A stretch of 64,000 bases of DNA, taken from positions 35,742 to 99,741 of the forward strand of contig CAZXYN010000003.1 of assembly GCA_964644965.1 (NCBI GenBank), read 5' to 3'. The position numbers were made by a program, and so were the translations under genes. This DNA is from an uncultured Candidatus Saccharibacteria bacterium. GTDB lineage: Bacteria; Patescibacteriota; Saccharimonadia; Saccharimonadales; JACDBH01. Each line of letters starts with the position of its first letter. Positions within the stretch are counted from its first letter, which is position 1. The notes beneath the pieces were generated by a model. That model had not been told where the DNA came from. It did no database searches and saw only the letters and a program-made list of their open reading frames with translations. Shown in pieces: positions 13,459 through 64,000 of this stretch.

Positions 13459-14604
13459 CTAGAAGAATCTTCTTACGTCCACGATAGTAATCAACACAAA
13501 CAATAGCATCAACGCCATGAAGCCAGTGCCATGAATTCGTTCCTCTACCTCTGGTAGAAGCGGCTTTTTGAATAGTCTGAAGGCCAGCATTACGAACAAG
13601 CGACCACCGTCTAGTGCCGGGATTGGCAGAGCGTTCATGATGGCCAGCGTCAGAGATATTATGGCGATAATAAATAAGACTAGACCGATTCCCTGCTGAG
13701 ATATTTCGTACAGTACTGCAAATATACCAACCGGTCCGGCAACCTGGCTGGAGGCCTCTGTTTGACCAGCCTGACGAGCTTCGTTATTGCCAGTCACTGC
13801 TCCAGCTACGATTGAGCCTAGACCCGCTAGCGCGCTGCCCAGACCCTTCAGTGTGGCAACAGTAAAATCACCCATGACACCCAGGGCAACCACTGGGGCT
13901 GACCACGTCGATCGACGAATCTCTAGGCCTGTTTCGGCAGAGTAAGAGCCGATGCCAAGATGTGGTGAAGTTTCGTTGAGCGTGACCTGATAGCTGATCT
14001 CTTCGCCGTCCCTATTCACGACTACGGTGACTTCCTGACCAGCATTACTAGATGTTATGTCTGACACATTCTCAGAAGAAGTAATCTCTGTACCGGCTAC
14101 AAACAGTAATTGGTCTTCCTCTTCGAGCCCTGCCTGGGCAGCTGGTGAATCATCGACAACTTGGCTAATTTTGATGACGCCCTCGTTCTCTGGGCTCTGT
14201 ATGACTTTGGTGTCACTTGGTACTGTAAACTGATTGTCGATAAGTGTCGGCATACCGATGAGCGCAACAATCGTAAACAGCACAAACGCAGTTATTAAGT
14301 TCATGACAACACCAGCCAGCATAATCTTGGTTTTGGCGAGCATTGTAGCTGCGCCAAAGGTACCTGGTTCGGTATCTATATCATGCTCACCCTTGAGTTT
14401 GACGAAGCCTCCTAGGGGCAACCAGTTGAGACTGTATAAAGTGCCGTTCTTCTTAGTCAGTGTCTTGGCGCGGGGCGGAAAACCAAGCCCAAACTCCTCA
14501 ACATCAACGCCATTACGGCGCGCCATGATAAAGTGACCCCACTCATGTACTAAAATTAGGCAAATAAACAGAACTAAACCGAAGATGAAGAAGAATATTC
14601 CCAT
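13459..14604 (-). CDS. rseP: Site-2 (RIP) zinc metalloprotease RseP
   Basis: 381 aa. HEWGHF (HExxH) in TM1, a central PDZ-like region, and NALPIPALDGG near the C-terminus. Confidence 0.93.
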   Translation of the reverse strand: MGIFFFIFGLVLFICLILVHEWGHFIMARRNGVDVEEFGLGFPPRAKTLTKKNGTLYSLNWLPLGGFVKLKGEHDIDTEPGTFGAATMLAKTKIMLAGVVMNLITAFVLFTIVALIGMPTLIDNQFTVPSDTKVIQSPENEGVIKISQVVDDSPAAQAGLEEEDQLLFVAGTEITSSENVSDITSSNAGQEVTVVVNRDGEEISYQVTLNETSPHLGIGSYSAETGLEIRRSTWSAPVVALGVMGDFTVATLKGLGSALAGLGSIVAGAVTGNNEARQAGQTEASSQVAGPVGIFAVLYEISQQGIGLVLFIIAIISLTLAIMNALPIPALDGGRLFVMLAFRLFKKPLLPEVEERIHGTGFMALMLLFVLITIVDVRRFF

Positions 14605-14698
14605 GTCTATTCAAGTATAAAGTATAAGGTTAAAGGTTGAAAGCAATATGACAGAAACTGTATTTGAAGTTTATCGGTGCAACTACTAGGGGCTGAGT

Positions 14699-14911
14699 CT
14701 TTGCATTTGGATGCTCAGTGCAATTTCTTTGTCCGTAAGGAACGTACCTAGCCTTTGCATGTGGATGTTCAGCATGATTTCTTCATCTGAGAAACGGACT
14801 GAGGCGTATTTCAATACGGTGAAGGAGTATTCTGCAGTGAAAAATCATGCTGAGCGCCACAATACAAACCTGTCAGTTCTCTGGCTCTGCCAGAGAGCAG
14901 GATGGGTTTGT
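14699..14911. repeat. Structured intergenic element, copy A (paralogue of 63430..63636)
   Basis: Direct half-repeats at 14699-14730 and 14752-14790. A 17-position stem pairs 14767-14784 with 14839-14855. Inner helices are 14787-14793/14830-14837 and 14805-14809/14814-14818. A terminal hairpin at 14864-14911 has the loop CTCTG. The element aligns with copy B and shows compensatory changes (see findings). Confidence 0.7.
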
Positions 14912-14921
14912 GGTGCAAGGC

Positions 14922-15629
14922 TCAAGAGCCGAAGCGGCGCTGGCGCTTGGCATAATATAGCAACACGAACTTGAGATCTTGCTTAGTAAAATCAGGCCAA
15001 TATTTGTCTATAAAAACGTACTCCGCGTAGGAGGCACGCCACAGCATAAATCCACTGGTGCGGTACTCACCAGATGTCCTGACGACTAGATCAACTGGGG
15101 GCAGCTCTGGCTCATAGAGGGCTTGTTCGAAATCACGAATGCTCAGGCGCTTTGGGTCGACATTTTGACGTAAGAGTTTCTTGGCTGCGTCGACGATTTC
15201 CTGCTGACCGCCGTAGTTAATACAGAGTGCAAAGGTACCACGATCAAAGTGAGCAGTTCTTTTGACAGCCTTGTCGATTGCCTGAAGAACCGACTTTGGT
15301 AGACCCTCTCTTGAGCCAACATGAACGATTCGAATCTCGTTTTCTTCTAGGTCCTTCATGTACTGATCGACGAACTTTATGATTAGCTTCATAAGATAGC
15401 TAACCTCACTCTTGGAGCGGTTCCAGTTCTCTGTAGAAAACAAATAGGCGGACACGTACTTAACGCCCACATTGATAGCGGCAATACCAATATCTCGTAG
15501 CACCTCCGCACCCTGGTAGTGACCTTTGAGTGTTGGCAGGTTTTGCTCGGTTGCCCAGCGACGATTACCGTCTAGAATAAACCCAAGATGTTTGGGGAGT
15601 GGTAATTTCTTGTTCTTAGCTTCTGCCAT
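14922..15629 (-). CDS. uppS: Undecaprenyl-diphosphate synthase (cis-prenyltransferase)
   Basis: GFILDGNRRWA and RTSGEYRTSGFMLW motifs. I prefer the start at MAEAKNKK (15629) over the ORF-track ATG at 15659, which adds 10 atypical residues. Confidence 0.93.
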   Translation of the reverse strand: MAEAKNKKLPLPKHLGFILDGNRRWATEQNLPTLKGHYQGAEVLRDIGIAAINVGVKYVSAYLFSTENWNRSKSEVSYLMKLIIKFVDQYMKDLEENEIRIVHVGSREGLPKSVLQAIDKAVKRTAHFDRGTFALCINYGGQQEIVDAAKKLLRQNVDPKRLSIRDFEQALYEPELPPVDLVVRTSGEYRTSGFMLWRASYAEYVFIDKYWPDFTKQDLKFVLLYYAKRQRRFGS

Positions 15630-29504: not shown

Positions 29505-30242
29505 ATGGCACCAAATCGCAACGGTTCGGGGTACGATGATGACATTGACGATATCATGGCCTCGATAATGAGTGGTAATTCCTCTTTGGAAACACAGCCA
29601 CCACCCCAGAAGAGACCAAAGCGACATCATATGTCGCCAAAGCGGCCTTCTGCCCGTGATGAATCCTTTGTGTCACCGCTGTCAATGAAAGAGGACACAC
29701 CACAGTCGCAACAGATAGAGAAGCCTGTGCGCAAGCACAATACAAAGAAAATCGGCCTCTATGTAGCGACCCCTGTTACATTGTTAGTACTAGTGTTTGG
29801 CGGTATGGCCTTATGGAATGGTCCGATCGCTGCACTCCTAAAGCCCCCAAGCCCGTTTAATGAGGAAGTCTTGGGTAAAATGACAGAAACACCTCTCTAC
29901 TACCCAACGAAGTTACCCGGAACCTACAAAATTGAGCTGAATAGTATAACCCAGCCAGAATCATCAGTGGTCGTGTACGCCATCACGGATGACAGCGGCA
30001 AAAAAATTAACGTCAGCCTGCAAGCTCAGCCAAAAAATATGACTCTCGAACCACTCTACAAGGCACTCACAAATCTTCGTAATACAGATACTAAGTTTGG
30101 TGTCATCAAGACTGGAACCTCTGAGGATGGCATTGACATCACCAATATTCTGGCAGGCAAAACATGGATTATTATCACATCAGCCAAAGGGGTGCTAAGC
30201 AGTGACGAAATTCAAACCATCGTTAATAGCCTAGAAGTCTAG
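29505..30242 (+). CDS. Hypothetical membrane-anchored protein (disordered cytoplasmic N-terminus, one TM, ~130-aa extracytoplasmic domain)
   Basis: 245 aa with TM IGLYVATPVTLLVLVFGGMALW. It is convergent with the Kelch giant gene, and the two stop codons overlap (30239-30242). Confidence 0.6.
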   Translation: MAPNRNGSGYDDDIDDIMASIMSGNSSLETQPPPQKRPKRHHMSPKRPSARDESFVSPLSMKEDTPQSQQIEKPVRKHNTKKIGLYVATPVTLLVLVFGGMALWNGPIAALLKPPSPFNEEVLGKMTETPLYYPTKLPGTYKIELNSITQPESSVVVYAITDDSGKKINVSLQAQPKNMTLEPLYKALTNLRNTDTKFGVIKTGTSEDGIDITNILAGKTWIIITSAKGVLSSDEIQTIVNSLEV

Positions 30243-33200
30243 GTACAGCTACCACCGCCTCCGCCACTATCGCCGCTCGTATCAAGCCCCTGCTTAACTT
30301 CGTTGCTAAAGTGTGTGCCCTGGCGTAGCCTAAACTCAGGCAACACCTGATTTGTCGTGTAGTTAACGGTAATATCACTGATAGTGCTCCCGTTTTCAGG
30401 GGCACTGGCTCTATATGTATCATCAATCGTCAGCCTAACCCACACGTACTGGGCGGTTTCGTTGATAGTATACCCGCTACCCGAAACAGCATTCGCTACC
30501 ACTGTGCTGGCACTAAATTCATCTGAACAAGCAGCTTTATATTCAAGTGTAAACTGGCCGCCACTACCAGTAAAACTAAGTGTCGATATTTCTCTAACTG
30601 ACCCCAGGTCTACTAGTTTGGAGTAAGTGCTCTTACGGGGTGCGGAGTTTATGGTGGCATAGTTGACTTCAGAAGAGGCTTCATTGGGGTTCCAGCCACC
30701 TACCTGGTACATATAGCCGTTATAGAATAGCATCTCTGCCGCGTCTCGGTTGTTGGGCAAGTTCACGGTCCGATTCCATTCACTGAGGTAACCATTAGGG
30801 GTAAAGGATGCGTACTCCACAATATTATAGTTAGTACAGCAACCACTATAGCCACCCGCAATGTAAAGCCTGCCATCGTATAAGCCTATCGCACTGTCGC
30901 CCCGTCGCACACCAGCATAGCGACTGATTGGCTCCCAAGAACCAATGGTACCGTTGGGGTTGGGGGTAGCTCGGTAAATAATGTTAACAAATGTATCTTC
31001 CCAGTCATCAAATCCGACAAGATAGAAGTACCCATCATGCTGCAGCAGTTCCTGTCCAGAACATGATTCCTGCGGCATAGCGGTGGTCGTGTTCCAGGAA
31101 CCAAGTGTGCCGTTGGAGTTTATCGGTGCATAGTATATTGCGGTAAAACAATCTGGCCACACCCAGCCGCCGGCGGCATATATGTAACCATTATAGACAA
31201 GAGCTGAAGGCTTGTGCCGATGACCGCCAGGTATAGTTGTTGTGGTACTCCACGACCCAATTGTTCCATTAGAATTTATTGGAGCGTATAACACTACTCC
31301 TGCTTGCGCTAAGTTTAGGCCACCTACTACATATACATAATTATTATTAACGGCTACACCACTTTGTGATTGCGGAAATGGCAGGCTTGTGGTTGCACTC
31401 CAGCTACCGAGAGTACCATTGGAGTTTATCGGTGCATAGTTGACATCTGTTCTCATGTCACCAAAATTATTCTCGCCACCTATCTGATACATATAGCCGT
31501 TGTGTACAAATGCAGAAAATTGAACAACAGGAGTTGGTAGCGCTGTAGTAGTGCCGTAGCTGCCTGTCGTACCAGGCCCACCACTGTTGATCCTGGCGTA
31601 CTGGGTAGTATTTTGATAACTTCCCGTGTAGCCCCCTGCAATATACATAAAGCCATTGTATGCAACCGCCCCTAAACGTCTGTTTACGCTCGACAGTGAA
31701 GTTGTGCTCGACCAGCTGCCAAGGGTACCATCGCTATTAACCCGTGCGAATTGTACTGTATTTACACTACCGCCTTCAGTTCCCCCCAGCACATATAGAT
31801 ACCCGTTATATATCGTAGCAGCATGGTCTCTTCGCGCAGCCGTCAGACCAGTAGTACTTGTCCAACCCCCGAGGGTGCCGTTACTATTTACTGTTGCGTA
31901 CTCAACTGTGCTGATATTAGTGGCACCTGCTGTTGCTGTTCCACCAAGTACATATATTTTGCCATCATAAGCTACAGATGCATGTGCTCTCCTAGCACTC
32001 GATAGAGCAGTTGTAGTAGCCCAAGTCCCAAGCGTACCGTCAGTATTAAGCTGCGCATACTCTACCGTCGAGAAATCATTCAACGAAGTATCACTACCGC
32101 CTATAGCATACAGATACCCGTTTGCAACTACGGCTGTATGCCAACGCCTAGCCGTATTAAGGCTATTCATTGCCGACCAGGAACCTAGAGTGCCATTACC
32201 GGTGTTTATAACGGAGCGACTTACTGTCACGATGTCCGAGCTGCCGTTATAGCCACCAATAACATACATCCGGCCGTTGTAGGCAACAGCAGCGTGGCTC
32301 CGAAGCGTCGAAGGCAGATTGGTTGTAGAGTTCCATGTGCCAAGAGTCCCGTCATTATTTATAGCCGCGTATCTGGTCGTATTTACACTATTCGTACCAT
32401 CTGATGACCCGCCCAAGACATACAGATATCCGTTGTAGGCCACTGTCGTATGGTCATATCTACCAGTATTAAAGGTCGTGCCTGCGGTATAACCCGAGGT
32501 GACTCCAGCCGGATGTATAGCCGCATAAACAACTGTAGTGGTTGCTGGGTAGTTAGTGCCTAGTGTATACAGATAGCCGTTGTAGGCTACCGAAGCGTGA
32601 TCCTGGCGTAAGCCACCGGAGAAGTTGACGCTGCTGGCTGTCCAAGCACCAAGCGTACCGTTGGCGTTAATAAGAGCGTATTCGCTGCCCTGACCGCTGC
32701 TAGAACTGCTAACACCACCTATAGCGTACAGGTAGCCGTTATGAACTACGGCGGCATGCTCCGATCGGTAGCTCGACACCATGCTCGGACCGGCTGTCCA
32801 GGAGCTAAGGGTGCCGTCAGAGTTAATCTTGGCATATTCAGTGGTATTGATGTTAGTGCTGCCGTTATTGCCGCCGATGGCGTATATATATCCATTGTAG
32901 ACTACGGCGGCATGATTAACGCGAATCGTACCCAGGCTAGCAGTCGAGGTCCAGCTGCCAAGCGTACCGTCGGCTTTGATAGGTGCAAAGTTAACCGATG
33001 TACTGGCCTGTTCCGGCCAAGGCAAAAACCCGCCAATGGCGTATATATATCCATTGTAGGCGACGGCTTCATGGAAGTTTCTAGTACCCGGCATGCTGGT
33101 AGTAGTCTGCCAGGAGCCGAGGGTACCGTTGGGGTTAATCTTGGCGTATTCGACACTAGACAACTCAGTACTCCAGTATGTCTGAAAGCCGCCAATGGCG

Positions 33201-34525
33201 TATATATATCCATTGTAGGCGACGGCATCAAACTGAGACCGGCCGATAGTCATGCTACTGGTAGCCGTCCAGGAGCCGAGGGTACCGTTACTATTGATTG
33301 GCGCGTATTGGACATCATCGAACGCCGGCGTGTCGTAGTTGCCATTAGTAGATCCGCCAATAATATACATGTAGCCGTTGTAGGCGACGGCTTCAGTATA
33401 AGAGCGAGCAGTGGCGAAACTAGAGGTGGCAGTCCAAGCTCCAAAACTCCCGCCACTAGCATCGGCTCTACGGATGGCGCCACTATCGTAAACAATGTTA
33501 TTGTCTTCACTATTGCCCTCAGTAAAATCTTCTGTGCTTGTCACCACCACACTCGGGTCGATACTAAGTGGGTAGTTTGCCTTTGATAGATTACGCGTAT
33601 GTACAGTCAGCACCCCGTCTTCGTAGCTAAAATACCCTGCCGATTTCTCGCTTTCTACAACCTGCCCTTCTACTGTTTCGTAGATCACGGGCTTAGGAAT
33701 TACAAATGCCAAGTGGGTTTTATCACCATTTTGACGGGCGGCCTCTACCTTCTCTCTATCTGCGTCTGACCCAAAGCTTATCGAGCCAAACAGCGTAGGA
33801 TCAGCCGAATACACCCCAAGCGATCCGTCGTCTAGTATTTTTGCCTGCAGACTGCCGGGTAACTCAAGATCATAGCCAAACTCCATCTCATCATTCACAA
33901 ATTCAGACAAGAGAATGTCCTCTTTCACACCGTTGCTTTTGAGTGTGTAGATGAGATGGGCATCGTCGTAACCCTTGAGCGGAAACACCACATGGCCGCC
34001 TGATTGCTGACCTTTGTGGGCAGAAAATCGTGGGGTTAATGTAAACGAAATTTCGAGCTGGGTGTCGTAGTAGGTCGCCCCTTTCTTAGGATCTCTAGAA
34101 ATAGAAGCGCCGTAAAGCAGCTCGTTGTCTTCCGCACCGCCGCCAACTTTTGCCTGGAGCTGCTCAATTGGATCTCCGCTCATTGAACCGATTGACTCGG
34201 CGTTGAATACATAGGCGTTTTCTTTTGAATCCAGTGTCAGCTTCTTATCGTAGCCCGCCGCCGGATCGCCAACCAGCGACCAGAGCGAATCAGAAAGCTT
34301 ATAGTCCACCCTGTTTTTGACAATCAAATACAGAGGTACCACCAGTGTCGCCAGGAACACTGCGGCTATACCGCCTGCCGCAAACCGCTGGCGGGTGGTG
34401 CGAAGATTGCGTTTAAAAAACCACTTCGCCTTCACCCGCGTGACCCGGAACGTGCGCTTGATTCGTCTTGTGACTTTTGCAGACTTCATATCTGTTTTTC
34501 GTCTCTTCCCTTTAGCTAAAAGCAT
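30239..34525 (-). CDS. Giant membrane-anchored Kelch-repeat protein (18 blades)
   Basis: 1,428 aa. Basic N-terminus plus TM (FAAGGIAAVFLATLVVPLYLIV). There are 18 copies of the x(Y/H)NGYhYxhGG signature, most followed by Y(A)xINS(N/D)GTLGSW; the blades span ~30650-33463. A unique ~290-aa N-domain and a ~130-aa C-terminal domain end in GDSGGGGGSCT. The start could alternatively be MKSAKV at 34489. Confidence 0.85.
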   Translation of the reverse strand: MLLAKGKRRKTDMKSAKVTRRIKRTFRVTRVKAKWFFKRNLRTTRQRFAAGGIAAVFLATLVVPLYLIVKNRVDYKLSDSLWSLVGDPAAGYDKKLTLDSKENAYVFNAESIGSMSGDPIEQLQAKVGGGAEDNELLYGASISRDPKKGATYYDTQLEISFTLTPRFSAHKGQQSGGHVVFPLKGYDDAHLIYTLKSNGVKEDILLSEFVNDEMEFGYDLELPGSLQAKILDDGSLGVYSADPTLFGSISFGSDADREKVEAARQNGDKTHLAFVIPKPVIYETVEGQVVESEKSAGYFSYEDGVLTVHTRNLSKANYPLSIDPSVVVTSTEDFTEGNSEDNNIVYDSGAIRRADASGGSFGAWTATSSFATARSYTEAVAYNGYMYIIGGSTNGNYDTPAFDDVQYAPINSNGTLGSWTATSSMTIGRSQFDAVAYNGYIYAIGGFQTYWSTELSSVEYAKINPNGTLGSWQTTTSMPGTRNFHEAVAYNGYIYAIGGFLPWPEQASTSVNFAPIKADGTLGSWTSTASLGTIRVNHAAVVYNGYIYAIGGNNGSTNINTTEYAKINSDGTLSSWTAGPSMVSSYRSEHAAVVHNGYLYAIGGVSSSSSGQGSEYALINANGTLGAWTASSVNFSGGLRQDHASVAYNGYLYTLGTNYPATTTVVYAAIHPAGVTSGYTAGTTFNTGRYDHTTVAYNGYLYVLGGSSDGTNSVNTTRYAAINNDGTLGTWNSTTNLPSTLRSHAAVAYNGRMYVIGGYNGSSDIVTVSRSVINTGNGTLGSWSAMNSLNTARRWHTAVVANGYLYAIGGSDTSLNDFSTVEYAQLNTDGTLGTWATTTALSSARRAHASVAYDGKIYVLGGTATAGATNISTVEYATVNSNGTLGGWTSTTGLTAARRDHAATIYNGYLYVLGGTEGGSVNTVQFARVNSDGTLGSWSSTTSLSSVNRRLGAVAYNGFMYIAGGYTGSYQNTTQYARINSGGPGTTGSYGTTTALPTPVVQFSAFVHNGYMYQIGGENNFGDMRTDVNYAPINSNGTLGSWSATTSLPFPQSQSGVAVNNNYVYVVGGLNLAQAGVVLYAPINSNGTIGSWSTTTTIPGGHRHKPSALVYNGYIYAAGGWVWPDCFTAIYYAPINSNGTLGSWNTTTAMPQESCSGQELLQHDGYFYLVGFDDWEDTFVNIIYRATPNPNGTIGSWEPISRYAGVRRGDSAIGLYDGRLYIAGGYSGCCTNYNIVEYASFTPNGYLSEWNRTVNLPNNRDAAEMLFYNGYMYQVGGWNPNEASSEVNYATINSAPRKSTYSKLVDLGSVREISTLSFTGSGGQFTLEYKAACSDEFSASTVVANAVSGSGYTINETAQYVWVRLTIDDTYRASAPENGSTISDITVNYTTNQVLPEFRLRQGTHFSNEVKQGLDTSGDSGGGGGSCT

Positions 34526-34566: not shown

Positions 34567-37500
34567 TTAGAATTTTGCAAAGTACTGGAAGGTTATATCT
34601 CCCGCCCGGGCAAAGTTACCATTAGTCGCCGTCACCTTGACCCGGAAGGTAATGATGTCGCCGGCAGCTATCGTACAGCTTGATTCATTACCTGTTAGCT
34701 GAGTGAACGTCCAGGTAGTATTGGTTGTCGAGCTATTGGTTGTCGAGCCACATTGTGTTCCATCTTCCTCAAATACTGCCAGCTCTACGCTGTCACTGCC
34801 TGTTGTGCGCCAGCCATACATGCCAAGTGTCGTATCTGATACCATGCCGTCAAAGTCGCTCGGTACCTGGTAGCGAATGTAGATATCGTAATCTTGGGCA
34901 GTGCCCTGGCTGGTTGTCCAGCCGTAATAGCTGAATTCTTCTGTTGCGCCACAGATAGTATTGTTTATGTTGCGCTTTGAGCTACCAGAACAGAAGTCGC
35001 TGGTCATAGTACCAAGGTTACTACTGCCATCGGCTGTAATCGTTGCTCCCATGTACTCAGGCGTAAACGTGACGCGCTTGGTTGGTCTACTTGTACCAAA
35101 GAACTCTATTGGTGAGCCGGCAGTTAGTCTAATACCGTTAGTTACGTCACCGACAATCAGCTCAGTATCTACAGTCAAATCACCAGTTACCGTTAGGTCT
35201 CCGTCGACATCTAGTGTGGCCGTGATTGTTATTGTATCTGTAGTTGTATCTACGTTTAGCAGTGTATCGTCACTTGAGTTCTGGATTCGGAATGCTGTTG
35301 TAGTGTCAGATGCATTACCGAACAGTGCTGCGCCAGTAAATGTCTTCGCCCCTGCAAGTGTCTGGGCAGATGTGCTGACCATACCAGGGTTGGTTTCATC
35401 AGCCGGGCCAAAGGTAATGGTGTTGCCAGATATGGTTGCGCCGTTTGTCTGTGAGCTGCCAGAGAAGGTAGCCACGGTAGTGACGCCCGTGCCAGGATCG
35501 CCGCTTCCCCCACCAGCCTTCAGTACAAAGCCGCCCCACATAGACGAACCATGACCATAACTGTTACTGACATTGAATTCCAGGTCTGTAGAGGTAGTGC
35601 CGGTTCGGAAGTATATTTCGGAATCTACACCACAGCAGCTAGTGAACATACTAGACCAGCCCGATGGCACCGCTAAGTCGCTGCCGCCACCATCATGATC
35701 TTCACCTATAGCCAGAATTACCCAGTCAGCTTCATTAGGTGTAGCACCAACGGTTTCACTGCCTGATTTGGTACCACTAAATGTTCCACTGACAAAACCG
35801 TCTACCGGTGTATCCTGGTCTACGCCAGAGAACTCACTGACAGAGATTTGATACTTATAAATGTTAAGTGATCCGGCATCGGCTACGATTTGCATGTTTG
35901 ATGGTGGTGAATCACCAACCACGGCATAGAAACTGCGGTAGGCAAGATCCCAGTCCTGGACAAAGCGCACACCGCCAATCGGCTGCCAGCTCAGGCTGCC
36001 GCCGGCTATGGTTAGGTCGGTTGCTCCGGCTGCGGGCGTACCGCCACCGCTGTTAACAGCCACTAACACTTGTGCGATTAGTACTGTACCTGCTTCTGGC
36101 GTAAAGGTTGAGCCGGCATTGAAGCTACCTGTTCCGTGGCTATCAGAGCTGGCTGCCTCAACCCGGCTTGTGCGGTTGATTTCTCCTGGCCCCTCTATTT
36201 CTGGCGGTGAGTAAATACAATCTTTCCACTCTCCGCCCTCATAGCAGCGGAATTTTCCAAGACTACTATTGTAATACATGGCGCCGTTTGTACCTGTTGG
36301 ATCACCGCTATTAGTTTTGGTATCGAGGACAAGCAGGGTACCGGTGGTGTCAGATTCACCAACTACTAGCCGGTTATTCGTCGTATCTATAGTGAATAGA
36401 CTTATACTTGAGCTGTTCTGAACACGGAAAGCAGTGGTAGAGTTGGTCGTGTTCTGGAACAGAGCACCACCGCCATCAGCTACCGTCATTACACCAGTGC
36501 CATTATCTTGCAGCTGAAGTATGTTGCCGGTAGACGTACCACTGTTGACGATCAGACCAATGGTCGTACCAGACACAGCATCAACATGCAGCCGAGCGCC
36601 GGTGGTTGTAGTGCCGATGCCGACATTGCCGGTGCTACCCTGGATTATCATCTTGGTGCTAAGGTTACGGAGTGTGGCGCCAGTTGCTCCGGCATTGGAG
36701 GTCTGGAATAAGATATCTCCACCAGCGGCAGAGCCAGTACCCCGTCCACCAGCAAGTGTTAGGTTTGCTCCCTGTATATCCGTGCCACTCCCGCCCGTGG
36801 CGTTGAGAGTGAAGTTGGCGGGAGCTGCATTGGTAACACCGTTACCGAAGTAGGCATTGTTAATAGCGGCAGTACTGGAGCCAATGACAAGCTGGTTGTT
36901 ACCCGTTGTTGTGGCGCCATAGCCAAGGGCAACGGAATACAGGTTACTGGCAGAGGCACTCCTTCCAAGTGCAGTGGAGTAGTTCCCTGCTGCGGCGCTT
37001 TGCCCCAGTACGGTTGAGTGAAAGCCCCCCGTTGAGCTTGATCCGATAACAACACTGTTCGAACTGGAAGCACTAGCACTATTGCCAATAAGAATAGTAT
37101 TACTATTGGAGGCTGAGGTGCTGCTACCAATAGCGATTCCGCCAGAGCTTGACACTAGGGCTCCCACACCTAGGGCAATACCAGAGGAACTGGCGCTCGC
37201 ACCAGACCCAATGACAACGGATGAATCCCCGTTCGCATCAGCATTCGTACCAATAGCAGTTGCATTAAAGCCACTTGCGGTTGCGCTGTAGCCAATTGCA
37301 AGCGTATTAGTATTGCTTGCGTTCGCACCGGCCCCGAACTGCTCACTGTTCGTACCGGTACCAGGTACAGAGATGCTGGCACCGTTGCTACCCTGGAGCA
37401 CACCAGCTGTTGTCAGGGTGAAGTAAGTAGTGTTGTTGGTCTCAAGATTCAATGCATAGTTATCATTGGTACCGATAGTAATAGCACCGCCATCAGTATT

Positions 37501-40170
37501 TCCGCCATTCATAATGTCGCCAGTTGCAGTCACACCACTAATACAGTCTTTCCATTCGCCGTCTTCATAACAGCGGAACTTACCAAGACTACTATTGTAG
37601 TACATTCCACCGTCTACACCTGTTGGATCACCAGAGTCTGCTTTGGTGTCAAGCACCAGAAGCTTGCCAGTGCCATTACCTATAGTAACTCCACCGCTGA
37701 GAGCAGTGTCACCTGTTACCTCTAGATTGCCGCTTATTGTGATAGTACCGCTTGCTTGGGTAATGATAGAGTCACCTATCTTGTTGCCCGCGCCAAATAC
37801 CGGGATGGTTCCGGGAGTGCTGTGGCCAATCCAGTTGATTTCTATGTAACCATCTCCAGTATGCTGGCCTTCATGTGCTCCACCTAATGGTATGAGCGAT
37901 GAGCCGCCGCCACCGCCGCCAGCACCGTTACAACCAGCGCCACAGGCACTACCACCGCCGCCGCCATAAACGCCGCCACCGCCACCGCCGCCTCTTCTTG
38001 GATTATTGTATCCACCGTTACCGCCCTGACCTAATGAGCCGGTGCCCCCACCAGCGCCAACAGTAGCTCCAGCCCCACCAGCCCCACCATTAGCACTAGC
38101 GGTGCCTGCTACTCCATTTGGATTACCTGCTGCACCACCGTTGCCCGGACCAGCACCACCAAAGCCGCCACCGCCACCACCGCCAGCGACGACTACACGA
38201 TTACCTAGTGCATTGGCGCCTTGACGTATATCAGTCGCACCGCCACCGCCACCGCCACTAGCACCAGGATTGCCTGAGTTACCACCACCATTCCAACCAC
38301 CGTTGCCATTTGGTGCAGTACCTCCGACATAAATATAGAGTGTTTCACCCGGTGTAACGGGTATTGTGGCGCTTACTATCGCACCTGCGCCACCAGCAGC
38401 ATCGCCTGCGCCACCAGAACCCCCTGCCGCTCTAATGCTTAGTTCCGTAATACCAGCAGGAACAACAAAGGTTTGCTGGGTACCGGTATAGCTAAAGCTC
38501 TGATTGCCACCTGAAGCGCTACCCCCCGTTAAGACCAATGCCCCCGAGGAATCAGGCAACTCGTACGTACGATCAGCCGTGATGCTGCTGGCCTGCAGTG
38601 TAGCTACAAACGCATTGGTAGCATTAAGCAGCTTGAGCATACCGTCTACAGTCTCTGATTCGCCAATGGTTAGGTTGCCGCCCTGGATGCGCATACCCTG
38701 GATAGATACTTCCTTATCTATATTGAGCCTATTACTAGAAGTATCATAGCTGATAGTAGCGTCATTGCCGTGTTCACCAATATGCAAACTGGATGAGCCT
38801 AAGTATAGATCGCGCCAGCGTATAGATGACGAACCTAAGTCATAAGTATTATCAGCACCGGGCAAGAAGTGACCATCTGTATCAAACAGCGCCCGTGTAA
38901 CCCCGTTTGTCTCAAAGTTCAGCGCATACTCGTCGTTCGTACCGATAGTAATAGCACCGCCATCAGTGTTTCCGCCGTTCATAATGTCACCAGTTGCAGT
39001 CACTCCACTGATACAGTCTTTCCAGCTGCCGCCTTCATAGCAGCGGAACTTACCAGCATTGGAGTTGTAGTACATGCCGCCGTTCTGGCCAGTTGGATCA
39101 CCGCTGTTGGTTTTGGTGTCGAGGACGAGCAGGCTGCCGGTAGTGTCGGAGGTACCGATACTAAGATTGCGGTTTATGTGGACTCCTGTCCAGTCAACCA
39201 TGAGCTCACCGCCGTTTGCAGCAATCTCTAGTTCATCATTGTCGTTATCGAAGACTATTCTGTTTGCGCCACTATTATCAAAGTATAGTTCTGATGAGCT
39301 TGATGCACCTGGGTTTAGGGTAATATTGACACCGCCGGTAGCATCACCAATCTGCAGATCTACGCCTGATAAGATTGAATTCGTGTTGATACCAACCCTT
39401 TCATTATCGCTATCAACAAGTAGAACCGTACTTGTTCCACCTGCGTCCTGGACCCTAAATGCAGTCGTCGAATTGTTTCGGATAGTCGTACTACCGTTAT
39501 TTGAAATCGTAAATACATCAGTGCCACTAGATTGCAGCTGCAACAAACCGCCAGCACCGGTTTGGTTAAGACGGATCGCAGAGTTGGCAGAGTTTATACC
39601 CTGCAAGGAGCCCGGAGCTGTTTGTACAAAATCATTGGTAGTAAAGTTGTTTGTTCCATCTGTCAGCGCACTTGCCTTGTCTGCCTGGAAGGCATGTGGC
39701 ACAGCCGTCAGCAGCAGTCTTGGGCTCATTTCGCCGTCCCAGCTTGGTGAGCCGGTTCCACCGATGTTCATACTCAGCCAGAGCTGCTCGCCCCACTGAA
39801 TCGTGCCCGGGAATGCAGAAACCGAGCCAAGACTTACAGTCATGTAGCCATTGGCAACCCGGACAGTGTTGCCGCCGGTTCGAGTCTCTGTCCAGAGACA
39901 GTTGGCATCACCACTGCAGCTACCTTGTGACGAGGTTCCAGAGGTAGACGCACTGTACAGTTTGAATTCCACATTGTAGTAGCCATCTGGCACGACAGCC
40001 CCAGAACCAGTCTTGAGCCGTGCCTGGAAGTTCAGGAAAGTACTTGGCGCAGCCGTGGCTGTAGGTGTTATTTGTCTCGAGATGCTTATGGCGGTAAGTA
40101 ATATCAAACCAAACACCAGCAACAGGGTGCGAAATACGGTACTTAACCGGTAGGTGTTATTTTTGGTCAT
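34567..40170 (-). CDS. Giant membrane-anchored mosaic fibre/adhesin-like protein
   Basis: 1,867 aa. N-terminal anchor TVFRTLLLVFGLILLTAISI. It carries three copies of a two-Cys module, a Gly-rich domain (~aa 556-781, nt 37828-38505), Ser/Ala/Gly-rich YadA-head-like repeats (~aa 941-1100, nt 36871-37350), and beta-helix-like TTAFRVQN segments. It lies 41 nt upstream of the Kelch gene. Confidence 0.85.
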   Translation of the reverse strand: MTKNNTYRLSTVFRTLLLVFGLILLTAISISRQITPTATAAPSTFLNFQARLKTGSGAVVPDGYYNVEFKLYSASTSGTSSQGSCSGDANCLWTETRTGGNTVRVANGYMTVSLGSVSAFPGTIQWGEQLWLSMNIGGTGSPSWDGEMSPRLLLTAVPHAFQADKASALTDGTNNFTTNDFVQTAPGSLQGINSANSAIRLNQTGAGGLLQLQSSGTDVFTISNNGSTTIRNNSTTAFRVQDAGGTSTVLLVDSDNERVGINTNSILSGVDLQIGDATGGVNITLNPGASSSSELYFDNSGANRIVFDNDNDELEIAANGGELMVDWTGVHINRNLSIGTSDTTGSLLVLDTKTNSGDPTGQNGGMYYNSNAGKFRCYEGGSWKDCISGVTATGDIMNGGNTDGGAITIGTNDEYALNFETNGVTRALFDTDGHFLPGADNTYDLGSSSIRWRDLYLGSSSLHIGEHGNDATISYDTSSNRLNIDKEVSIQGMRIQGGNLTIGESETVDGMLKLLNATNAFVATLQASSITADRTYELPDSSGALVLTGGSASGGNQSFSYTGTQQTFVVPAGITELSIRAAGGSGGAGDAAGGAGAIVSATIPVTPGETLYIYVGGTAPNGNGGWNGGGNSGNPGASGGGGGGATDIRQGANALGNRVVVAGGGGGGGFGGAGPGNGGAAGNPNGVAGTASANGGAGGAGATVGAGGGTGSLGQGGNGGYNNPRRGGGGGGGVYGGGGGSACGAGCNGAGGGGGGSSLIPLGGAHEGQHTGDGYIEINWIGHSTPGTIPVFGAGNKIGDSIITQASGTITISGNLEVTGDTALSGGVTIGNGTGKLLVLDTKADSGDPTGVDGGMYYNSSLGKFRCYEDGEWKDCISGVTATGDIMNGGNTDGGAITIGTNDNYALNLETNNTTYFTLTTAGVLQGSNGASISVPGTGTNSEQFGAGANASNTNTLAIGYSATASGFNATAIGTNADANGDSSVVIGSGASASSSGIALGVGALVSSSGGIAIGSSTSASNSNTILIGNSASASSSNSVVIGSSSTGGFHSTVLGQSAAAGNYSTALGRSASASNLYSVALGYGATTTGNNQLVIGSSTAAINNAYFGNGVTNAAPANFTLNATGGSGTDIQGANLTLAGGRGTGSAAGGDILFQTSNAGATGATLRNLSTKMIIQGSTGNVGIGTTTTGARLHVDAVSGTTIGLIVNSGTSTGNILQLQDNGTGVMTVADGGGALFQNTTNSTTAFRVQNSSSISLFTIDTTNNRLVVGESDTTGTLLVLDTKTNSGDPTGTNGAMYYNSSLGKFRCYEGGEWKDCIYSPPEIEGPGEINRTSRVEAASSDSHGTGSFNAGSTFTPEAGTVLIAQVLVAVNSGGGTPAAGATDLTIAGGSLSWQPIGGVRFVQDWDLAYRSFYAVVGDSPPSNMQIVADAGSLNIYKYQISVSEFSGVDQDTPVDGFVSGTFSGTKSGSETVGATPNEADWVILAIGEDHDGGGSDLAVPSGWSSMFTSCCGVDSEIYFRTGTTSTDLEFNVSNSYGHGSSMWGGFVLKAGGGSGDPGTGVTTVATFSGSSQTNGATISGNTITFGPADETNPGMVSTSAQTLAGAKTFTGAALFGNASDTTTAFRIQNSSDDTLLNVDTTTDTITITATLDVDGDLTVTGDLTVDTELIVGDVTNGIRLTAGSPIEFFGTSRPTKRVTFTPEYMGATITADGSSNLGTMTSDFCSGSSKRNINNTICGATEEFSYYGWTTSQGTAQDYDIYIRYQVPSDFDGMVSDTTLGMYGWRTTGSDSVELAVFEEDGTQCGSTTNSSTTNTTWTFTQLTGNESSCTIAAGDIITFRVKVTATNGNFARAGDITFQYFAKF
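36214..36336 (-). repeat. Two-cysteine module, copy 3 (aa 1279-1319)
   Basis: LLVLDTKTNSGDPTGTNGAMYYNSSLGKFRCYEGGEWKDCI. Confidence 0.85.
37540..37662 (-). repeat. Two-cysteine module, copy 2 (aa 837-877)
   Basis: LLVLDTKADSGDPTGVDGGMYYNSSLGKFRCYEDGEWKDCI. As in copy 1, it is followed by the near-identical SGVTATGDIMNGGNTDGGAITIGTND. Confidence 0.85.
39010..39132 (-). repeat. Two-cysteine module, copy 1 (aa 347-387 of the 1,867-aa protein)
   Basis: LLVLDTKTNSGDPTGQNGGMYYNSNAGKFRCYEGGSWKDCI. Confidence 0.85.
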
Positions 40171-44514: not shown

Positions 44515-44564
44515 CCCCATAAAAATCTCTACAAAAATGGTCCGGCCGGACGTATAATGTAGAT

Positions 44565-45026
44565 ATGGCTCATAAATCCGCTATTGTATACATCCTAAAG
44601 GCGCTTATTCCTTACTCTAGGGAAAACTTGAATCTCGCGTTCAAGCCCAATAGATTCTTTGATGAGCTTGAACGTACTTCTGGTCAAAAGCGTAAAACAC
44701 TGCAAACCGCCTACTATCGAGCTCATAACGAAGGCTTAATCCAGAATCAAAACGTACTAACCCTTACTGGCTGGGAGAAGGTTCTGCCCTTCGTCGCCAA
44801 AACCTTACAGAAGGATGTCGTCCTGATGGTTATATTCGACATACCAGAGGATTCAGCCCCACTTAGGCGTGAATTGCGAGGCTTTCTGAGGCGTCTAGAT
44901 TTTATCCAAGAGCAGCAAAGTGTATGGGTAAGCAGCTTTGACTACACCAGGTATGTTGAGGAATATGTTAAAAATAAATCACTACAGAACTACGTCCAAG
45001 TATACGAAGCAGCTCGCATATGTTAA
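44565..45026 (+). CDS. PaaX-like / Cas2-fold-like putative regulator
   Basis: 153 aa. The C-terminal half VVLMVIFDIPEDSAPLRRELRGFLRRLDFIQEQQSVWVSSFD matches the 'FDIPE...R..LR..L..LGF..LQ.SVW' pattern of PaaX-C/Cas2-like ferredoxin folds. The N-terminal half is wHTH-like. TATAAT (44553-44558) lies 6 nt upstream of the ATG. Confidence 0.6.
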   Translation: MAHKSAIVYILKALIPYSRENLNLAFKPNRFFDELERTSGQKRKTLQTAYYRAHNEGLIQNQNVLTLTGWEKVLPFVAKTLQKDVVLMVIFDIPEDSAPLRRELRGFLRRLDFIQEQQSVWVSSFDYTRYVEEYVKNKSLQNYVQVYEAARIC

Positions 45027-45068
45027 TCTCTACAAAAGTTGTCCGGCCGGACCATATTTGTAGAGATT
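45025..45068. repeat. Perfect-armed 44-bp palindrome filling the gap between two convergent stop codons; degenerate second copy at 44524-44564
   Basis: aatctctacaaa-agtt-gtccggccggac-cata-tttgtagagatt. The upstream copy reads aatctctacaaa-aatg-gtccggccggac-gtataatgtagat. Confidence 0.85.
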
Positions 45069-53992: not shown

Positions 53993-54208
53993 CTATTTCT
54001 GACCGAGCTTTATCTTTTTGACCTTGAGAGCTTTTCGCTCTGTGCGAGCGATAGCTTTGATACGACGATCTCGCTTGCTCATTGGTCTTTCAAAGTATTG
54101 ACCGTTTTTTACGACAGCAATAACACCAGCTTGCTGTACTTTGCGATTAAATCGACGAAGTACGTTCTCTACTGGTTCTTTGGCGTCTTTACGTGTAACT
54201 GAAATCAT
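53993..54208 (-). CDS. rpsU: 30S ribosomal protein S21
   Basis: 71 aa. The sequence ...VENVLRRFNRKVQQAGV...YFERPMSKRDRR... fits the bS21 pattern. Confidence 0.93.
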   Translation of the reverse strand: MISVTRKDAKEPVENVLRRFNRKVQQAGVIAVVKNGQYFERPMSKRDRRIKAIARTERKALKVKKIKLGQK

Positions 54209-54243: not shown

Positions 54244-54409
54244 GCGCAAAGTTCATTTGGGACAAAGATTACGAGCAAAACATCTAGAGCCTCAGGACTT
54301 GAGCTCATTTCGGTGCGCCCCGAGGAACGGAGCTGGGCCGTACTTATGGTACTGCCCAGTGAGTACCCATAAGAGGCAATCTGGAAGGAGCCAAGTATTA
54401 TGGTTCTGG

Positions 54410-54697
54410 CTATACTTGCTGTTTCTTTTGAGTAGTGCGTTGTGATTTCAACACTATACTTTGGAGTTCTTTAAAGATTGGGAAGTGCTTGTTGGTGTAA
54501 TAAATTTTCGTGTTGCCTTGGCGTTCACTAAGTAGGAAGCCGACTTTTTCAAGTCGCTTTAATTCGCGTTGAATATTGCCAGCATCTTCTTTGATCAACT
54601 TAGCAAGACCTCGGACATGTGTTTTGAAGTCCGGGTATTTTGCGTAGATAACAATAATCTTACGCCTTACGCGTGAGGTAATAAAAACGTCTAACAT
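54410..54697 (-). CDS. Small winged-helix (ArsR/MarR-like) transcriptional regulator
   Basis: 95 aa. The sequence ...VRGLAKLIKEDAGNIQRELKRLEKVGFLLSERQGNTKIYYTN is an HTH-wing pattern. Confidence 0.7.
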   Translation of the reverse strand: MLDVFITSRVRRKIIVIYAKYPDFKTHVRGLAKLIKEDAGNIQRELKRLEKVGFLLSERQGNTKIYYTNKHFPIFKELQSIVLKSQRTTQKKQQV

Positions 54698-63133: not shown

Positions 63134-63385
63134 TTAGCTTTCTTCGACTTTGATACCAGATGGAATGTTTGTGTTCACACCTGACTCCACCTGTGGAGCC
63201 GTAGGCTTCTGACGAATGATATCTGTAGTTGTAGTCGTTGTAGTGGTAGTTTCCTCGATTATCATTGCCTGAGCCAGTACCAGACCAGCCGCCAGACCAA
63301 TTACCAAGATTACGATCCCATCCACCCAACGGTGCCAAACCGGATCATTGCTTACTTGAAACACATCATTATTCATAAATTCCAC
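63134..63385 (-). CDS. Small membrane protein with poly-Thr tract
   Basis: 83 aa with a GTG start, TM WVDGIVILVIGLAAGLVLAQAMII, then EETTTTTTTTTD. Confidence 0.5.
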   Translation of the reverse strand: MEFMNNDVFQVSNDPVWHRWVDGIVILVIGLAAGLVLAQAMIIEETTTTTTTTTDIIRQKPTAPQVESGVNTNIPSGIKVEES

Positions 63386-63429
63386 CTCTGTTGATTATTG
63401 CTAAATACAGGGTTAATTTGCTTGGGCTT

Positions 63430-63636
63430 GGATGCCCGAACCAACCTCTTACAGTAAAAGATGGGTTCGCGGATCCTAAAACCTTTGTATTTGGATGCCT
63501 AGTGCGATTTCTTCATCTTGGAGCGGAGCGAGCCGTACTAACGTACGGTGAAGCGAGCATCCAAGTGAAAAATCGTGCTAGGCGCCAAAAGTAGCTCGGC
63601 AGACGGTTGGCTCTGCCGACCGACAGACCGAGCTAC
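63430..63636. repeat. Structured intergenic element, copy B (paralogue of 14699..14911)
   Basis: Hairpin 63430-63442/63464-63476. A 17-position stem pairs 63497-63514 with 63567-63583. Inner helices are 63517-63522/63560-63565 and 63533-63538/63543-63548. A terminal hairpin at 63591-63636 has the loop CTCTG. On the minus strand the terminal hairpin is followed by TTTT, so it probably also terminates the KGG gene. Confidence 0.7.
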
Positions 63637-63648
63637 GATGCATAGGTT

Positions 63649-63846
63649 TTAAACTGTTTTCTTAGTGCGGCGGCTAATACGTCCACCCTTAGCGCCAGCA
63701 ATACGAGCAAGGTCACGGTTAGCAGCGAAGCCGCCAGTTGTACCCTTTTTACCGCCCATAGCACCGATGCGAGCGTAGAAGTCAGCACCGTACTTAGTTT
63801 TGTTTGTTGATGCAGCAGCTTTGCCGCCAGTCTTTGTTCCTGCCAT
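63649..63846 (-). CDS. KGG-repeat general stress protein (YciG-like)
   Basis: The sequence MAGTKTGGKAAAS...IGAMGGKKGTTGGFAANRDLARIAGAKGGRISRR contains KGG-type repeats. The start is taken at ATG 63846. Confidence 0.7.
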   Translation of the reverse strand: MAGTKTGGKAAASTNKTKYGADFYARIGAMGGKKGTTGGFAANRDLARIAGAKGGRISRRTKKTV

Positions 63847-64000
63847 TGTTTTTTCCCTTTCGTGCGCGCTTATTTTGAGAGTCGTCATTTTCGTCCAGCC
63901 GAGGACATTTCTTCGCCGTATAATTTACATACGCCTACGAAATGGATGCCTCATCTGAACAAAAATGACGCTTGGCTCAAAAGAACCGCTTCACAGTGGT

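Follow-up and report, generated by a model that had tools for sequence, protein, structure and literature searches.

Two Divergent Copies of a Structured Intergenic Element in a Saccharibacterial Contig: Candidate Members of a Low-Copy RNA Family

Location and Parts of the Two Copies

The window is the whole stretch of 64,000 nucleotides that was analyzed. Two of its genes, rseP (13459-14604) and uppS (14922-15629, open reading frame including the stop codon), are encoded on the - strand and are separated by a spacer of 317 bp (14605-14921), the length given in an earlier note on this DNA. Copy A of the element described here is located in this spacer, and its closing helix ends at 14922, where the stop codon of uppS, read as its reverse complement, begins. 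Copy B is located between the open reading frame of a small membrane protein (63134-63385, - strand) and the gene for a KGG-repeat stress protein (63649-63888, - strand). The 3' strand of its closing helix overlaps the stop codon of the latter gene, which is convergent. The two copies have the same orientation and show 81% column identity across 166 columns.

The similarity in the same orientation had been recognized in the earlier note. The ends assigned there are too short, with the closing helix P1 missed in both copies. The helix formed by 14767-14784 with 14839-14855, called S1, exists and is the lower part of P2. The helices S2 and S3, the invariant CGGA and GGUGAAG segments, and the terminal hairpin with a common GGCUCUGCC apex in both copies were all found again. 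The parts of the two copies and the fragments upstream of them are listed below. Scores are given for two covariance models, R1, which was trained on copies A, B, and C only, and R2, the improved model.

14750-14922, + strand: copy A, complete element of 173 nt (P1, P2, and P3; minimum free energy of -88.6 kcal/mol, three-helix shape)
14750-14760, + strand: 5' strand of P1 in copy A, AGCCUUUGCAU, which pairs with 14913-14922
14761-14860, + strand: P2 of copy A, a hairpin of ~100 nt (single-sequence fold and alignment)
14863-14912, + strand: P3 hairpin of copy A with the apex GGC-UCU-GCC (fold and alignment)
14913-14922, + strand: 3' strand of P1 in copy A
63478-63650, + strand: copy B, complete element of 173 nt (R1 183 bits, R2 169.5 bits)
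63478-63491 with 63637-63650, + strand: P1 of copy B
63492-63587, + strand: P2 of copy B
63591-63636, + strand: P3 of copy B
about 14687-14749, + strand: A', a decayed 5' partial copy with the motif UCUUUGCAUUUGGAUGCUCAGUGCAAUUUCUUUGUCC at 14698-14734 (direct-repeat family D12)
63405-63477, + strand: B', an upstream remnant with the core TTGGGCTTGGATGCCC at 63421-63437

The 5' strand of P1 in copy A includes YUUKYAU, which is the most conserved block of primary sequence in the family. The P2 hairpin of copy A contains UGG-A(bulge)-UG/CGCC with an invariant U.G pair, an invariant AUUU-C(bulge)-UUC/GAAAAAU helix, the purine-rich internal loops GGA/GA and GA/GA(A), and an apical stem with an invariant GUA/UAC. 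Scores of 171 bits (R1) and 138 bits (R2) were obtained for copy A on the + strand, and 16-29 bits on the - strand.

In the Logan assembly SRR16797979 of the same strain, a break occurs inside the 5' strand of copy A at ~14745-14771 (end of L003 and start of L004). The two contigs overlap by 27 nt, and the break may be a coverage gap or a graph ambiguity at the repeated 5' motif.

Fold, Covariation, and Strand

The element consists of a closing helix P1 of 10-15 bp, the P2 hairpin of ~100 nt, and the P3 hairpin of ~45-50 nt. Each of nine sequences from six lineages folds on its own to this shape, with energies of -68 to -105 kcal/mol. The folds of copies A and B have z scores of -7.9 and -9.8 relative to shuffled sequences, and 0 of 200 shuffles were as good. 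RNAalifold on A and B alone provided 50 pairs, of which 12 are fully compensatory. For S1 this calculation returned exactly the three swapped pairs and the three changes to or from G-U that had been reported previously.

The pair statistics refer to alignment A6, which contains the nine sequences and a consensus of 67 pairs. Standard pairs appear in 94.6% of the cells, against 75.9% in shuffled alignments (0 of 500 shuffles reach the observed value), and only 36-44% of the cells are paired when the 3' partner is slid; these counts lean towards structure, as A6 was fitted to a covariance model. Circularity is argued against by the single-sequence folds and by the detection of copies D, E, and F with a model that was not trained on them. 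Both sides have changed in 44 of the 67 consensus pairs, so that the covariation named in the earlier note as a test of the element is strong on the alignment. All 13 pairs of P1 covary across the family. Certain modules are invariant amid varying neighbors, namely UGG-A(bulge)-UG/CGCC (with the U.G pair in nine of nine sequences), AUUU-C(bulge)-UUC/GAAAAAU, and GUA/UAC of the apical stem. The P3 apex GGC-UNU-GCC is common to five of the six lineages.

The two strands are not equivalent. Across the six lineages, 44 G-U pairs are found on the + strand versus 11 A-C mismatches (binomial p of about 1e-5, which is not a strict probability since some pairs are inherited). Copy A folds at -79.4 kcal/mol on the + strand versus -57.2 kcal/mol on the - strand, and copy B at -87.6 versus -73.3 kcal/mol, which corresponds to a difference of 14-22 kcal/mol in favor of the + strand. 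With R2, the + strand scores 138-170 bits and the - strand 16-28 bits. The local GC skew of the + strand is negative, so mutation bias alone would be expected to favor A-C over G-U on that strand. The excess of G-U pairs therefore identifies the + strand as the selected one, most simply as RNA. The selected strand is antisense to both neighboring genes at the A/D, B/F, and E loci, which are three of the four independent loci.

A small protein-coding gene can hardly be entertained, for although open reading frames of 87 aa (14711-14974) and 67 aa (63391-63594) overlap the copies, their frames differ among A, B, and C, the indels are not multiples of three, the substitutions occur as complementary pairs, and no gene is called there in public assemblies. 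The shifting frames and the covariation thus bear out the prior view that a nucleic acid structure, rather than a protein, is conserved.

Distribution, Site Occupancy, and Upstream Fragments

The species genomes of GTDB were scanned with a pattern for the 5' end. Eight loci were obtained, which is about the number expected by chance, and one of the eight (L011) is a true member. This is copy C, located in a divergent spacer of a Candidatus Saccharimonadales MAG. Folding of this locus exposed the closing helix, formed by CUUUGCAU at the 5' end and AUGCAAAG at the 3' end. The same helix is present in A and B, and the element is thus a nearly fully paired three-way junction. Downstream of copy C (L011, 955-1150), CAAAGAACCTCCAGAGG appears twice, ~160 nt apart, and its second occurrence belongs to a strong hairpin (AAAGAACCTCCAGAGGGGGTGGGCACCGCTGGAGGTTCTTTGT).

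The search for homologues with a covariance model, proposed in the earlier note, provided further members, and four more lineages are now represented. Copy D is located in the uppS-rseP spacer of the related genome GCA_964641015.1 (L015, L016, and L017; R1 119 bits). Copy F occupies the site in the same genome that is orthologous to that of copy B (L122-L125; R1 110 bits). Copy E is found beside a trehalase gene on one JGI metagenome contig (R1 51 bits, E = 3e-11). The pattern scan of the JGI metagenomes contains at least one true match among the 80 loci listed of 89 matching stretches. Judged from the GTDB and JGI counts, the family is rare; the pattern scans require exact matches and are insensitive, so these counts are lower bounds.

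With the covariance model, the 64-kb window, ~100 kb of DNA from related Saccharimonadales, and 80 viral loci yielded no further copy, and the near-identical scattered copies that would mark a MITE are not present in the window or in the ~100 kb of related genomes. Blastn provided no match in phage and plasmid collections, and three viral pattern scans returned zero or only chance matches; an origin from a phage or plasmid was dropped on these grounds. In agreement with the earlier failure to recognize a known family, none of the 4227 models of Rfam 15, among them those for 6S, YrlA, SRP, tmRNA, ribozymes, riboswitches, and HEARO, reached its gathering threshold in the window. At a permissive E <= 10, only chance microRNA and snoRNA matches of 10-19 bits appear at both copies. 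A putative third copy at 54285-54473 was scored at 14.8 bits by R1 via a common ACGGAGC...GUGAGU loop motif. It was not recovered by R2 and is therefore not a member. This stretch (+ strand) is itself structured and intergenic (MFE z = -3.2, no Rfam match), is located upstream of an rpsU-like gene at about 54000-54208 (- strand), and has an AC-GGA-stem...stem-GA-GU internal loop that resembles the lower loop of P2.

Within the GCA_964641015.1 lineage, strains differ by a rearrangement directly upstream of copy F. A gene for a protein of 152 aa and a small membrane-protein gene are found in L122, whereas the other strains (L123-L125) have a + strand open reading frame of 139 aa instead. Copy F itself is kept at 97% identity across the rearranged strains L122-L125.

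In a tree of the RRF, UppS, RseP, and Rce1-like proteins, the window genome, L013, L015, and L113 form a star-like clade with ~79% amino acid identity, and L110, L018, and L109 fall outside it. Both sites, uppS-rseP and small-gene/KGG, are occupied in the window genome and in GCA_964641015.1. Both are empty in SRR28413674 (spacers of 57 bp and ~30 bp) and in GCA_964529785.1. The uppS-rseP site is empty in L109, and only a remnant with the P1 arms kept is present in L113. The loss or absence in sister lineages indicates that the element is dispensable. The uppS-rseP spacer of L018 (10774-15721; GCA_040959485.1) contains two genes of ~817 aa with fn3, Big_7, and dockerin domains and no RNA element; insertions appear to recur in this spacer.

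The four-fold degenerate sites of the flanking genes are 33.6% identical between the window genome and GCA_964641015.1 and are thus saturated. The orthologous elements are 62% (A/D) and 60% (B/F) identical, which equals the level between paralogues. Identity of ~60% next to four-fold sites saturated at ~34% points to purifying selection on the structure. Base pairing, G-U pairs included, has been kept by selection over a divergence at which synonymous sites are saturated. Free positions have thus been randomized, with the pairing and the invariant modules kept over a long period. No new insertion is found in either of the two lineages. The copy number observed in the window is two in 64 kb, ~61% identical to one another and both orthologous to copies of GCA_964641015.1.

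Decayed 5' ends are found upstream of several copies. Three such units are present in L015, two in L017, and one (A') upstream of copy A, and copy F has none. A' aligns with the upstream units of L015, L017, and L113, with the consensus CCTGAGCCTTGCATTTGGAT. The core of B' (about 16-17 nt) has exactly the sequence of the genuine 5' end of copy F, the GCA_964641015.1 ortholog of copy B; this suggests that the present 5' half of copy B displaced an older one. The upstream fragments are not significantly structured, and in the minimum-energy fold A' forms its own small hairpin and does not displace the resident 5' strand. The duplication of a 5' half at 14699-14730 had been noted previously together with a possible alternative pairing to the 3' strand. 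The duplication is real and A' could pair, as could unit 2 of L015. Units 1 and 3 of L015 are not complementary to the 3' strand of their own copy, and conservation for the sake of alternative pairing is thus unsupported. A switch built from the upstream units was rejected for the same reason, as units 1 and 3 cannot pair with the 3' strand of P1. The fragments may instead be scars of repeated turnover of the 5' end.

Interpretation and Comparison with Known Elements

The genes found beside the copies across the loci are uppS, rseP, a KGG protein, a small membrane protein, dprA, a trehalase, and a 2'-5' RNA ligase-like protein. The copies have no neighbor gene in common, and no reverse transcriptase, transposase, or integrase is found in their flanks; these features argue against a cis leader and against a mobile cassette. 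Neither target-site duplications nor flanking direct repeats appear in the flanks of any of the six lineages. The four loci scanned on the + strand contain no sigma-70-like promoter upstream and no intrinsic terminator downstream. Assignment of TTGCAT as a -35 box was rejected, as no -10 element occurs 17 nt downstream in any copy. A terminator scan of the - strand provided partial matches in B and E only.

We put at about an even chance the joint reading that A and B are paralogues in an undescribed low-copy family of strand-specific structured RNAs of ~175 nt, found in a subgroup of Saccharimonadales, bound by protein, and derived by insertion. The element would be transcribed on its own from the + strand, convergent with the upstream gene, and the RNA would work in trans as a protein-bound small RNA. 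The likely recognition sites are UGG-A-UG/CGCC with its U.G pair, AUUU-C-UUC/GAAAAAU with its bulged C, GUA/UAC, and the purine-rich internal loops, as these modules are invariant while their neighbors covary. The empty sites in SRR28413674 and GCA_964529785.1 together with the L113 remnant suggest that the copies entered by insertion. This would have occurred in the ancestor of one Saccharimonadales clade, with the copies immobile since and with repeated 5'-end turnover leaving the decayed fragments upstream. Counting against an RNA gene, the presence and absence among lineages, the remnants, and the modular 5' partial copies resemble repeat elements and not classical sRNA genes.

The element would be a new RNA family, and the closest known kind is that of the RNA-structured intergenic repeats bcr1, ERIC, and BOX, for which transcription, compensatory changes, and locations at gene 3' ends have been described (PMC3184786). 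The bcr1 repeat of the Bacillus cereus group (~155 bp) is reported to be transcribed, with a double-stranded RNA structure kept by compensatory changes; it has flanking direct repeats of 5 bp, and its distribution is not conserved among close strains (PMC3184786). The element is likewise dispersed, intergenic, and of similar size, and dispersed copies with compensatory changes in an RNA hairpin are found at four independent loci. Unlike bcr1, it has no flanking direct repeats, and two of its sites have been retained between genomes whose synonymous positions are saturated; it is related to bcr1 neither in sequence nor through Rfam. Terminal inverted repeats, target duplications, and a flanking TA are described for ERIC, and BOX is thought to be mobilized by an IS (PMC3184786). 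The element shares imperfect palindromes, spacers near gene 3' ends, and structure at the RNA level with ERIC (Enterobacteriaceae) and BOX (Streptococcus pneumoniae). It differs from them in that flanking direct repeats, a TA target, and an IS transposase were all missing in the flanks examined, the strand under selection runs antisense to the genes around it, and there seem to be few copies.

The main alternative, conceivable though on balance improbable, is that the copies are fossils of a nonautonomous MITE-like repeat of the bcr1/ERIC/BOX kind that was spread by transposition, with a hairpin that plays at most a cis role in the stability or processing of transcripts. The copies are dispersed at unrelated intergenic sites flush with gene 3' ends, and each of A, B, and C is bounded by an inverted repeat, CTTTGCAT...ATGCAAAG, of which D has the variant TTTTGTAT...TACAAAAG. 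Their presence varies among related lineages, one of which has a decayed remnant, and the number of 5' modules (three in L015, two in L017, one in the window) recalls BOX arrays. The reported transcription of bcr1 and the maintenance of its double-stranded RNA by compensatory changes are also compatible with this origin (PMC3184786). Against it, no copy has a target-site duplication, a transposase was not found nearby, and copies in the same genome are just ~61% identical. No lineage-specific insertions distinguish two genomes with saturated synonymous sites. At three of four independent loci, selection acts on the strand opposite to the operon around the copy, whereas a cis effect on those mRNAs would require the other strand. 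A classical MITE in particular is disfavored, as the outer P1 arms have diverged in sequence, with covariation in place of conservation, and target-site duplications are absent. If the copies are nevertheless fossil repeats, RNA-structured repeats of the bcr1/ERIC type would exist in CPR bacteria and could persist for a long time.

A role in cis is unlikely. An antisense or 3'-end element of this type would act through its hairpins, or through convergent transcription of the structured RNA, on the gene whose stop codon it overlaps (uppS, KGG stress protein, or trehalase). It would govern how the transcript of that gene ends, how stable it is, or how its translation terminates, and it might shield the gene from the promoter that follows. 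In five copies (A, B, D, E, and F), the stop codon of a convergent gene is touched or overlapped by the 3' strand of P1. The pairing of copy F reaches into the last codons of the KGG gene, rseP retains its own TATACT -10 element just upstream, and a short run of U comes after P3 on the - strand of B and E. These target genes are functionally unrelated, and the element is missing at the same genes in closely related lineages. Copy C has no convergent gene at its 3' end, a U tract is missing from the - strand of copies A and D, and in a compact genome with co-oriented genes a spacer element adjoins the upstream stop codon by default. A riboswitch or cis-acting leader is not indicated either, since the selected strand is antisense to both neighbors at A/D, B/F, and E.

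Extension of the RNA reading to an unrecognized accessory system is speculative and improbable. The RNA would be the noncoding part of a Saccharibacteria system with a dedicated protein partner encoded elsewhere, and the copies might be renewed via RNA or by 3'-anchored copying. Such copying would account for a 3' junction that does not move from the neighbor's stop codon, with older 5' ends (A', B', and the units of L015 and L017) pushed upstream. The system would then be present where both copies occur and absent where none do.

A structure of single-stranded DNA that serves in recombination or transposition, for example as an IS200/IS605-type end, an attC-like site, or a folded att site, is very unlikely. 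The conservation of structure without sequence and the strand specificity are compatible with such a site, G-T pairs are tolerated in folded single-stranded DNA, and the 5' partial copies could be scars from repeated site-specific events. No TnpA, TnpB, integrase, or Xer-type context is found at any locus, and the copies are stable at orthologous sites over a long divergence. Judged from the GC skew and gene orientation, the folded strand would be the leading-strand template, whereas exposed single-stranded DNA would be expected on the lagging-strand template. Integron attC sites were rejected, as the RYYYAAC/GTTRRRY cores are missing at the ends of A, B, and C and there is no integrase or cassette array; the ends of copy D (TCCTAAC and GTTAGGA) only approximate such cores.

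Other known systems were compared with the element. 6S RNA (SsrS) is ~180 nt long, its ends pair in a closing stem, single-base bulges interrupt a long irregular internal stem, and some genomes encode two paralogues. The size, paired ends, bulged long stem, and two paralogues per genome are similar here. The large single-stranded central bubble of 6S RNA is absent; P1 runs straight into P2, and the pairs at this junction covary (columns 11/176, 12/175, and 14/118). Unlike 6S RNA, the element is dispensable in sister lineages, and the Rfam 6S models provide no match at E <= 10. The retron msr/msd ncRNA and the IS110 bridge RNA are encoded beside their own reverse transcriptase or recombinase. 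They share a length of ~150-200 nt and terminal pairing or conserved internal loops with the element, but no such gene occurs within several kb of any copy. Retron ncRNA, bridge RNA, and omega RNA were rejected, with no reverse transcriptase, IS110 recombinase, TnpB, or IscB adjacent. GGAUGU resembles the SELEX consensus of CsrA. A CsrA sponge of the CsrB/RsmZ type is not favored, as the conserved GGAU is paired in the full element with its A bulged, and tblastn with CsrA provided no match in the window or the loci. A cluster of DnaA boxes (TGTGGATGT and TTTGGATAA, like TGTGGATAA) was also rejected, as only the TGGAT core is common and the conserved TTGCAT is left unexplained. There is no GC-skew switch here, and the motif proposed as a DnaA box is confined to the element.

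The genomes of Saccharibacteria and other CPR bacteria are tiny, at about 1 Mb. An RNA of ~175 nt in at least two copies under purifying selection in such a genome is unlikely to be junk. To our knowledge, few noncoding RNAs specific to CPR bacteria have been described, and the RNA biology of the phylum is nearly unexplored. A family of structured RNAs well supported by 44 covarying pairs would be added to the Saccharibacteria and the CPR, and the occupancy of both sites or neither offers a direct route to partner genes via phylogenetic profiling.

Other repeats are also present in the window. A sequence of 43 nt appears twice (44524-44566 and 45025-45067), each time as an inverted repeat (ATCTCTACAAA...GTCCGGCCGGAC...TTTGTAGAGAT). 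The two copies bracket a gene of 153 aa (44565-45026) with a PaaX central Cas2-like domain, and they look like candidate operators for a repressor that regulates its own gene. The repeat scan of the window is dominated by DNA repeats with a period of 156/312 nt in the genes of two giant repeat proteins, one of 1428 aa with Kelch repeats (30239-34525, - strand) and one of 1867 aa with YadA-head repeats and Gly-rich tracts (34567-40170, - strand).
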